Positions 24,530-25,329 of a stretch of 64,000 nt of DNA are shown piece by piece. Made by a program: the position numbers and the translations under genes. Each line of letters opens with the position of its first letter. The first letter of the stretch is position 1. Below the pieces are notes generated by a model that worked only from the letters and a program-made list of their open reading frames with translations, ran no database searches and was not told where the DNA came from. The DNA comes from Escherichia phage WPEC1. The stretch is from sequence record PV659873.1; one strand, given 5' to 3'.

Positions 24530-25329
24530 ACAAGCCCAGGGATCGGGCTTATACTGTTTTACATACAGAAGAGGAAGCGCCACCCCACGGCGTAAAGGCG
24601 GGGCTAACATACCAGGGGCACTGGTTGGAAGGTTGATCGCCGGTAGGCTGGGCGCTATATATTTGTAAAGAAATGTAAAGATAAAATAATCACTTGCTTT
24701 CCTGGCTGGATCTGTTATTCTTATTACATGGCGAGGGGACACGGGAGCGCGAGACAAACACCGCCCCTGCGCGTCATTCTCTAAATGAGAATGATTATCA
24801 TTTACCTTATTGAATAAGAATCAATCTCATTTATAAACTTAAATGCGAATCATTCTCATTTGCATTTCCACATGAGAACTCTTCTCATTCCCACCTGCAT
24901 AAATTTTTGTAAACTTTAAATTTTGCTTTTGTACTTTCATTTTTGTAAAAGCAAAAAAACTTTAAATACTGTGGGCGCGCAAAATTTTTAAAATTTTCCT
25001 TGACTTTTGAGTTTTGTTTTGTATCTAACATTTTAAGATAATTTTCCTAAACTTTAAATTTTGGTTTTCAACTTTCACTTTTGTAAATTCTTAAAAAGTT
25101 TAAATAATTTGAGGGATTTTTGAGATAATAGGTAGTGGAAATTTGAGATAACCTTTAATCTTATTGGTAGACCTTCAGGAACCCACCTAGATCGAATCCT
25201 AGCGATGCAAACTGAAAAAGACAAGGGTTTGTATAGGACAAAATAACAGGCTCTCTACGGTGCTGTAGGAGCCTTATTTCTGTGCTACAAAGTGACACCT
25301 TTGTTCTAAAAATGAAAAAAGTTAAAATA
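24530..25329. other. non-coding region with iteron-like direct and inverted repeats
   Basis: No ORFs; ATGAGAA inverted repeats 24786-24893; two copies of a ~60 nt AAACTTTAAATTTTG..TTTTGTAAA unit (24905-24970, 25047-25110); lies between convergent genes. Confidence 0.5.

Follow-up and report, generated by a model that had tools for sequence, protein, structure and literature searches.

A widely conserved non-coding locus with an array of Fur-type operators in Escherichia phage WPEC1 and related phages

The window analyzed here comprises 64,000 nucleotides of Escherichia phage WPEC1 (PV659873.1), which megablast placed in the phAPEC8 group of Escherichia myoviruses (Phapecoctavirus, Stephanstirmvirinae). 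Within it, we characterized a locus at 24525-25329, which is delimited by the stop codons of two converging genes, ORF87 (24524) and gp256 (25330). The original prediction, made from the letters alone, had described a gene-free region with inverted and direct repeats at this place, and the absence of genes was confirmed: no conserved open reading frame (ORF) was found, and the short ORFs annotated here in the WPEC records are interrupted by frameshifts or stops in relatives. The same applies to ‘gp257’ of phAPEC8 (AFU62828.1; 24416-24757, minus strand), which overlaps both ORF87 and the conserved non-coding block. Since all of these reading frames are broken in relatives, gp257, its copies in many records and the small WPEC ORFs were rejected as genuine genes; gp257 and its copies are very probably spurious ORFs. 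Read on the plus strand, the locus comprises two promoter-like elements (P1 and P2), each followed by a conserved element (modules 1 and 2), a CpxR-type box upstream of P2, four palindromes, an AT-rich iteron array and a terminator hairpin (Table 1). Over 24400-25450, identity is 100% to the phages WPEC2, WPEC4 and WPEC6 and ~98% to phAPEC8 (megablast).

The four palindromes, each 19 bp long, start at 24784, 24813, 24842 and 24871, i.e., with a start-to-start spacing of exactly 29 bp, and correspond to the ATGAGAA-type inverted repeats noticed originally. Their core TGAGAATNATTCTCA, searched with up to two mismatches, was found six times in 64 kb (four times in the array and twice at 59-252), while 0.47 matches are expected and none of 100 shuffles reached six. 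Fur operators are well known from bacterial iron genes, and membership of the palindromes in this class was assessed using the 19-bp consensus GATAATGATAATCATTATC and the 9-1-9 palindrome AATGATAATnATTATCATT. Box 1, read on the minus strand (24787-24805), is GTAAATGATAATCATTCTC and has 16 of its 19 positions in common with the Fur box consensus of E. coli. The four boxes match a local palindrome at 15-17 of 18 positions, and a single symmetric position distinguishes this local palindrome from the Fur M9 consensus. Matches of at least 14/19 to the Fur consensus number 20 in the window; 15 of them are located within the array region or in window 1-1100. Only box 1 has an additional half-site on its upstream side (TCATTCTC).

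Two tests independent of the Fur consensus were applied. In the first, the array was compared by BLAST with 5,426 complete E. coli genomes. Only weak matches were obtained, but the two examined lie ~90-120 nt upstream of fhuE, a gene encoding a Fur-repressed siderophore receptor. In the second, a position weight matrix (PWM) built from 20 distinct phage boxes only was used to scan 40 kb of E. coli K-12 (600000-640000). The top four non-overlapping matches were located in fepB-entC (20.6 and 16.9 bits), fepD-entS (16.3 bits) and fepA-fes (15.2 bits), followed by the next match at 10.0 bits; these three intergenic regions of the ent-fep cluster make up 1.8% of the DNA scanned. All three are footprinted Fur-controlled promoters of the enterobactin cluster (PMC2189734).

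A Fur homologue was found in none of the phAPEC8-, rV5- or T5-like records, and a phage-encoded Fur was rejected on these grounds as the protein binding the boxes. ORF87 was rejected for this role as well, since several box-bearing lineages gave no match to it and it has neither a Pfam family match nor a structural relative. We consider the identification of the palindromes as Fur-type operators to be well supported by the sequence comparisons. Given the PWM and BLAST matches, the absence of a phage Fur, the lineages with boxes in which ORF87 is undetected, and the retention of boxes and 29-bp spacing between spacers that are not conserved themselves, binding of host Fur to the array is judged to be quite likely. 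Of the functions proposed originally, the palindromes agree best with a repressor operator cluster, although the comparisons point to a repressor of the host and not of the phage.

The original prediction also reported the same motif within positions 1-300. Indeed, two further boxes lie there, and a third one follows at 1049-1067. All three are part of window 1-1315, which is likewise large and devoid of genes and contains many ATTATT / ATGAT / TTGTT-rich repeats. Its counterpart in canonical genomes is found 10-12 kb to the left of the main locus, and many GenBank records start or end inside it.

Sensitive BLAST analysis with 24500-24900 as query matched 355 phage records of two subfamilies, Stephanstirmvirinae and Vequintavirinae. 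Lineages among the matches are phi92-like (Justusliebigvirus), rV5-like (Vequintavirus), PVP-SE1/GAP31-like (Seunavirus), CR9/DU_PP_IV/Pantoea (Certrevirus) and Klebsiella Mydovirus phages. The matches start at the predicted P1 transcription start and extend through the first boxes. When representatives were compared, nine lineages shared the same order of elements on the plus strand: a small gene, P1, module 1, T-GTAAA-N5-GTAAA-GA, P2, module 2, boxes, iterons, TTTGAGATAA, AAATATCA and a converging gene. Within this plan, the number of boxes ranges from one to five per lineage, box 1 is kept at a fixed distance from P2 and the 29-bp spacing is found in most genera. Box 1 itself is retained without change in five of the other six genus-level lineages shown and reads GATGARAATGATTMTCRTT in three Certrevirus loci. 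rV5-like phages carry two tandem copies of a unit consisting of promoter, module 2 and box, and in some genera a third sigma-70 promoter follows the boxes. The iteron segment holds three to five direct repeats per lineage, and the GC hairpin in the P1 spacer is kept even where its sequence differs, while the stretch between iterons and terminator is poorly conserved. Scans of metagenomes, genomes and IMG/VR for more distant copies added few loci. The locus is, thus, a widely conserved, composite non-coding module, which appears to have been undescribed so far.

The 29-nt sequence of P1, TTGACAAGCCCAGGGATCGGGCTTATACT, is unchanged (29/29) in IMG/VR relatives whose gp256 protein is only 59% identical. 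In the same relatives, the ~215 nt after P1 are near-unchanged, save for homopolymer indels of 1-3 nt; because such indels occur in a near-invariant block, coding by module 1 can be excluded. The geometry TTGAC[A/G]-17-[T/C]ATAAT, with other spacers, was found in CR9, DU_PP_IV, UPEC06, the rV5-like phages and one further locus (L019). In WPEC1, the P1 spacer holds a GC hairpin (24532-24550) which would also be able to terminate ORF87. P2 is present in all lineages, reading TTGCAA-17-TATATT or TTGATC-16-TATTAT in other genera, and resembles the MEME/PHIRE promoter motif of phAPEC8. A TTACATA start is common to P1, P2 and repeated early-promoter cassettes. The latter consist of a sigma-70 promoter followed by (T)TACATAGGGCGGCAATGGTGCCGC, a 5′ GC hairpin, and appear as ‘PHIRE promoters’ in the annotation of phAPEC8; they are located at 24093-24133 and 27399-27448 in the window and at 296-315, 1150-1169, 2166-2185, 3055-3074 and 3694-3713 in locus L001. 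In a Klebsiella-type phage (L022, IMGVR_UViG_2974574029_000001), a plus-strand ORF (MKKVYGVGVNDSASPIKGCRFYATWRNMLQRCY…) that resembles a homing endonuclease directly follows module 1 from position ~2810 onward (reverse-complement coordinates) and replaces the rest of the locus. As this ORF was inserted in plus orientation right after module 1, it argues for plus-strand expression of the locus, and the region is very probably transcribed.

The perfect GTAAA-N5-GTAAA upstream of P2 is the single match in the window to a CpxR-type box, whose consensus in E. coli is of the type GTAAA-N4-8-GTAAA (PMC9603713). Neither pentamer changes across lineages, unlike the spacer (GAAAT, GAAAC, GAACT, GATTT, GAATT). 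The box was found at the homologous place in the module-1 loci except for UPEC06 and L022 (an inserted ORF replaces the box). A centre at ~-56 from the transcription start, as observed here for P2, is a usual position for an activator. We regard a CpxR site upstream of P2 as a lead, conceivable from the motif and its position but still doubtful. Two perfect GTAAA-N5-GTAAA motifs also occur within 7.5 kb in the left terminal repeat of T5 (record 5079-5093 and 7440-7454; L035 1080-1094 and 3441-3455), one of them just upstream of the putative pre-early promoter T5P5.

Table 1. Features of the locus and its borders, in window coordinates; promoters and boxes are predictions.
Feature	Position	Strand	Description
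gp258 early promoter	24152-24124	-	Divergent from ORF87 promoter
ORF87 promoter	24185-24213	+	Sigma-70-like, TTGCTA-17-TATTAT; diverges from gp258 early promoter
ORF87	24261-24524	+	Genuine small gene, phrog_19316; intact in every relative
Promoter P1	24527-24555	+	TTGACA-17-TATACT; 11/12 to sigma-70 consensus; predicted start ~24561-24563 (TTACATA)
Module 1	24562-24646	+	~85-nt near-invariant non-coding element, …CGCCACCCCACGGCGnAAAGGCGGGGCTAACATACCAG[loop]CTGGTTGGAAGGTnGATCGCCGGTAG; loop length and sequence vary
CpxR-type box	24665-24679	+	GTAAA-N5-GTAAA, perfect; centre ~-56 from P2 start
Promoter P2	24694-24721	+	TTGCTT-16-TATTCT, then TTACAT(A/G)G as in the phage's other early promoters
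Module 2	24726-24783	+	Conserved GC-rich leader ending GAGACAAWCACCG…CTGC…YWTTCT; abuts box 1
Fur-type box 1	24784-24802		AATGAGAATGATTATCATT; 28.3 bits; 16/19 to Fur consensus on minus strand (24787-24805)
Fur-type box 2	24813-24831		AATAAGAATCAATCTCATT; 21.7 bits
Fur-type box 3	24842-24860		AATGCGAATCATTCTCATT; 27.9 bits
Fur-type box 4	24871-24889		CATGAGAACTCTTCTCATT; 18.5 bits
AT-rich iteron array	24902-25111	+	72-nt units, partial copy, AAACTTTAAAT and TTTGTAAA motifs; A/T-tract palindrome 24982-24997
Two TTTGAGATAA repeats	25120-25129, 25143-25152	+	First reads TGAGATAAT, extended -10-like; motif also in Klebsiella Mydovirus and GAP31
Symmetric hairpin	25241-25279	both	Bidirectional intrinsic terminator; -15.3 kcal/mol (plus), -16.0 kcal/mol (minus); A/U tracts on both sides
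AAATATCA / AAATATC repeats	25324-25339	+	Right border, overlap gp256 stop; 2-4 copies at same border in other lineages
gp256	25330-25872	-	NADAR-domain protein (PF08719, E = 1.1e-35); first gene of converging minus block
Further Fur-type boxes	57-75, 236-254, 1049-1067		25.8, 21.4 and 19.9 bits; in non-coding window 1-1315

ORF87 and the non-coding region form a short rightward unit, which meets the leftward gp256 NADAR block at the 25241-25279 hairpin; in phAPEC8, this hairpin carries a terminator annotation. For the ORF87 product, a confident model with five helices and an invariant N-terminal helix-turn-helix-like segment was predicted. The order of the window differs from that of reference phAPEC8-type genomes and is not colinear with them. 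Mapping identified 19000-23754 as the PhoH/HslV/lysozyme region, a site separate from the 24525-25329 locus in all 25 listed reference genomes; in ESCO13, it is located ~105 kb from the homologous non-coding locus. Local BLAST placed breakpoints at 23754 and at 27021, where colinearity with WPEC4 is lost again. Exact 77-nt repeats are present at both breakpoints (23678-23754 and 27012-27088), with further copies elsewhere in WPEC2, which suggests assembly joins with k=77 across repeated early-promoter elements; less probably, the WPEC lineage may have undergone a genuine rearrangement. The genes to the left of ORF87 in phAPEC8 (gp258 onward) are encoded on the minus strand and diverge from it. 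The original placement of the locus between convergent blocks is, thus, correct locally, for the gp256 block and the ORF87 unit; the long block of plus-strand genes that ends at 23754 is not a natural neighbour. Elsewhere in the window, 12 tRNA genes were found in three clusters (40052-41484, 56544-57015 and 62543-62610), including two tRNA-Met, three tRNA-Gln and tRNA-Arg(tct).

The strong conserved promoter right upstream of the most conserved 85 nt, together with the terminator at the far end, could mean that the functional product is RNA, i.e., a P1-driven module 1 RNA, perhaps also module 2 or a 3′ small RNA ending at the 25241-25279 terminator. The Fur boxes would then merely regulate or terminate this transcript, and the iterons would be RNA repeats acting, for example, as protein sponge or antitoxin mimic. 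Module 1 indeed adopts the same predicted three-helix fold in 8 of 10 lineages, with a conserved stem (ACCAG/CUGGU) and a variable loop of 4 to 9 nt, and an invariant G-U pair favors the plus strand. However, only one of the 16 pairs of the consensus fold covaries (AU 11 / GC 4) and the rest are invariant. Folding was no better than that of shuffled sequences on either strand (module 1 z-scores -1.0 to +0.7), no consensus RNA structure was obtained for module 2 (-2.5 kcal/mol), and Rfam gave no match at gathering score and none meaningful at E<=5. What stands out in module 1 is primary-sequence conservation rather than RNA structure. A known RNA family was rejected on the basis of the negative Rfam searches, and a thermodynamically stable RNA on that of z-scores of about zero on both strands and the missing consensus fold of module 2. 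A tRNA-derived element was also ruled out, as ARAGORN found no tRNA in the homologous Klebsiella DNA or in this region of the window; tRNA-Ile and tRNA-Met annotated over the homologue of modules 1 and 2 in the record of Klebsiella phage K45PH128C2 (OY978796.1 10891-11044; L015 1616-1769) are probably false annotations.

A precedent for such an RNA is pseudo-ToxI, a non-coding repeat RNA in a Certrevirus-type phage (PhiTE paper). Identity of the present locus with the pseudo-ToxI escape locus was rejected, since ToxI-like repeats are found ~70 kb away in DU_PP_IV (at 144.0 kb). The poor conservation between iterons and terminator also speaks against an RNA product. Overall, we hold an RNA as the main product to be rather unlikely. 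The counter-case named in the original prediction, small proteins or a structured non-coding RNA, did not materialize: the small ORFs are unconserved and an RNA structure was not demonstrated. Separately, ToxI-like (type III antitoxin) 36-nt repeats (e.g., MF979563.1 144049-144117) were detected in 200 phage records, 163 of them from Klebsiella phages and the others from Pectobacterium, Salmonella and Escherichia phages, which suggests that pseudo-ToxI-type loci are widespread in phages.

The direct repeats downstream of the boxes, originally seen as two units of ~60 nt, were confirmed, but their actual length is 72 nt (24902-24973 and 25040-25111; 82% identical), and a partial third copy is present at 24991-25023. 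The best 60-nt direct repeat is identical at 50/60 positions, compared to a maximum of 36/60 in 200 dinucleotide-preserving shuffles. The motif AAACTTTAAAT occurs four times on one strand (24911, 24957, 25049 and 25095; spacing 46, 92 and 46 nt) and at chance level elsewhere in the window; being confined to the iteron locus, it was rejected as a general (late) promoter motif. AT-rich tracts, also noticed before, are evident from a GC content of 23.7% over 24890-25130 versus 39% in the window. Arrays are found in all lineages, but the iteron sequence is lineage-specific, with different direct repeats at the same place, which implies a co-evolving phage DNA-binding protein.

The AAACTTTAAAT copies and the 72-nt units thus provide at least three direct repeats beside an AT-rich tract, the arrangement by which iteron origins are recognized. 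In lambda ori, four 19-bp iterons lie beside an AT-rich tract and the origin is activated by transcription. Likewise, the palindromes of WPEC1 could bind a phage initiator as part of a classical iteron origin, and their resemblance to Fur operators would be coincidental or convergent. This would fit four regular 19-bp palindromes next to a 24%-GC tract with more direct repeats and promoters reading in, at a locus that is conserved and non-coding. On the other hand, the same boxes are present in phAPEC8-, rV5- and T5-like phages, which have very different replication proteins, and they match host Fur operators in the reciprocal PWM test. A phage-specific initiator site would be expected to co-vary by lineage, as the downstream iterons do. 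In addition, no initiator-like gene is recognizable beside the iterons (ORF87 is without Pfam or structural relative, and gp256 encodes a NADAR protein), no DnaA box (TTWTNCACA) was found between 22.8 and 30.3 kb, and clustering of Dam sites as an origin or pac signature was ruled out, as GATC is not enriched. Cumulative GC skew peaks at 24-25 kb, where the coding strand changes and the probable assembly join lies. As the skew tracks gene orientation and is confounded by the non-colinear join, it was rejected as origin evidence; the rV5 paper takes the same view of skew following gene orientation. The T5 origins, for comparison, were mapped near the genome centre and not in the terminal repeat, where the boxes of that phage lie (Davison). 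We consider it unlikely that the palindromes are initiator sites. The candidate origin of the original prediction, therefore, is neither borne out nor excluded: iterons, AT-rich tract and inward promoters fit, whereas DnaA boxes are absent, no initiator is recognizable nearby and the skew check, which was carried out, is uninformative.

The boxes are also found in a second phage family. T5-like phages match only the box part of the 24500-24900 query in BLAST, and neither modules 1 and 2 nor P1/P2 were found in them. In T5 (AY587007), the PWM detected sites at 9473, 9508, 9577 and 9612, which coincide with copies 1-4 of the annotated ‘direct repeat C’ and with palindromes E, G and I. Those at 9473, 9577 and 9612 score 21.9-28.3 bits, and the site at 9577 (AATGAGAATCATTATCATT), with 28.3 bits, equals the best box of the window. 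These boxes are located in Repeat Region 3 of the left terminal repeat (record 9468-9637) and adjoin the 7.9% nick on its left; the calculated shear point of first-step transfer is 9618 (Davison). In phiR2-01, the left terminal repeat carries eight boxes at its inner end (L017 1360-1590), some of them 29 bp apart; a perfect DnaA box is found next to them, and a hairpin and an iteron array follow. For the injection-stop region of T5, a DnaA-based stop mechanism was proposed from comparative data, in which Fur and iron are not mentioned (Davison). In our literature search, no paper linking Fur boxes to T5, rV5 or phAPEC8 was found, and nothing was found on Fur or this locus in these phages.

The locus might also control DNA entry or packaging, similar to the T5 injection stop, with boxes and iterons acting on translocation. 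Consistent with this are the shared boxes, partly at the same 29-bp distance and followed by hairpin and iterons, their position at the first-step-transfer stop and the 7.9% nick of T5, and the many database records that start or end in the box-bearing window 1-1315 region. However, the position at which a record ends is usually arbitrary, circular permutation is described for PhiTE, the only relative checked, and the DnaA-box inverted repeats of T5 are absent here. To our knowledge, two-step injection is not known for phAPEC8/rV5-type phages. We judge such a role to be improbable. For the injection-control site proposed originally, the same boxes (direct repeat C, palindromes E, G and I) at the T5 stop are an unexpected parallel, but one of elements and not of function.

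A Fur sink is a further possibility: during genome replication, the seven boxes of the two non-coding regions would bind away more and more host Fur and, thereby, derepress iron uptake to the benefit of the phage. This idea is disfavored by the high abundance of Fur (thousands of molecules per cell) and by the usual curtailment of host transcription by the time phage copies are numerous. High-scoring boxes are indeed concentrated in non-coding DNA and not at phage gene promoters, and multicopy Fur boxes derepress the regulon in the Fur titration assay (PMC2189734), but such a sink explains neither why box 1 keeps its distance from P2 nor the spacing of 29 bp and the linked iterons and is, hence, hardly probable.

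We favor, with a probability of roughly 40%, a conserved early-transcribed non-coding control locus which is gated by host Fur and possibly by CpxR. According to this model, rightward transcription would start from two tandem sigma-70 promoters, a strong P1 and P2 with the CpxR-type box near -56. About 55 nt past the P2 start, the transcripts would meet the four Fur operators spaced at 29 bp. In an iron-replete host, Fe2+-Fur would occupy the array and act as a roadblock, blocking or damping transcription, or other DNA transactions, into the next segment, while under iron starvation of the host the unoccupied array would let transcription pass. The AT-rich iteron segment, probably bound by a phage protein, ends at the bidirectional terminator facing the NADAR operon. 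In this way, an early DNA-level event at the iterons would be coupled to the iron (possibly envelope-stress) state of the host, and transcription-activated initiation of replication appears to be the most plausible role of this segment.

Several observations weigh against the Fur-gated model. Fur usually represses from positions overlapping the -35 or -10 element, whereas the boxes found here do not overlap any of them: they lie at ~+55 to +160 from the P2 start, and in GAP31, Klebsiella phages and UPEC06 they are at least 17-25 nt upstream of the -35 of the third promoter (about -40 to -100 from this promoter). The spacing of 29 bp also differs from natural Fur clusters, which overlap and are phased by 3 or 6 bp (PMC2189734). 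The CpxR motif is expected 0.30 times per window, and at least one copy was present in 26 of 100 shuffles. The origin step suffers from the missing DnaA boxes, the lack of a recognizable initiator nearby and of GATC enrichment, and the confounded skew described above. Finally, Fur gating does not account for the extreme conservation of modules 1 and 2, and support for an RNA structure is weak.

With respect to both phage groups, a broader version of the Fur-gated model is that two unrelated virulent phage families recruited host Fur, and the myoviruses possibly also CpxR, as a checkpoint at a key non-coding site. We give little credence at present to this generalization and the division of roles that it includes, in which the T5 array would be part of the injection-stop region and the phAPEC8/rV5-type array would gate transcription into a possible origin.

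A Fur-controlled promoter is known from Stx1 prophages. A conserved, regularly spaced array of Fur operators in non-coding control regions of strictly virulent phages, however, appears not to have been described before. If Fur binds, a ~1-kb locus that carries spurious ORF annotations in hundreds of GenBank records would stand out as the most conserved non-coding element of these genomes. In that event, the array would offer a handle on how therapeutic-type coliphages (relatives of phAPEC8, phi92, rV5 and PVP-SE1) sense host iron, and the iron status of the host differs sharply between laboratory media and gut or bloodstream. In the same case, Fur would be a new candidate host factor for the two-step DNA injection of T5, a question dating from the 1960s, for which the current injection-stop proposal rests on DnaA boxes adjoining the same repeats.

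Several known systems share features with the locus. PhiTE pseudo-ToxI, from a related group of phages, is likewise a non-coding array of direct repeats and is transcribed, as the present locus probably is, but the iteron sequences are unrelated and the ToxI-like repeats of DU_PP_IV lie far off. lambda ori and the transcription-activated origins oriF and oriG of T4 resemble it in having regular symmetric repeats (~19 bp) beside an AT-rich tract with promoters reading in; unlike those origins, it has no recognizable initiator gene around or beside the site and its repeats match the operator of a host repressor. T5 Repeat Region 3, which lies behind early genes in a large stretch that is conserved and untranslated, likewise has several copies of the same boxes followed by a GC hairpin and then by an array of unrelated direct repeats. 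T5 differs in its paired DnaA boxes, placed in inverted repeats just upstream (IRD'-spacer-IRC'; Davison), of which none is present at the WPEC1 locus, in its iterons (TGTGCAAATCCGAC), and in the location of the site in the terminal repeat, at the pause of DNA entry. CpxR-activated promoters are matched by the perfect GTAAA-N5-GTAAA near -56 of a sigma-70-like promoter, with pentamers kept and a variable spacer; here, the putative site is phage-borne, and a motif of this length may well arise by chance (0.3 per 64 kb). Finally, the array resembles the Fur operators of E. coli. While its sites are discrete, 29 bp apart and located on a virulent phage in a region without a downstream gene, they share the 19-bp 9-1-9 palindrome AATGA(G/T)AATnATT(C/A)TCATT, and a matrix made from the phage boxes retrieves the ent-fep operators first.

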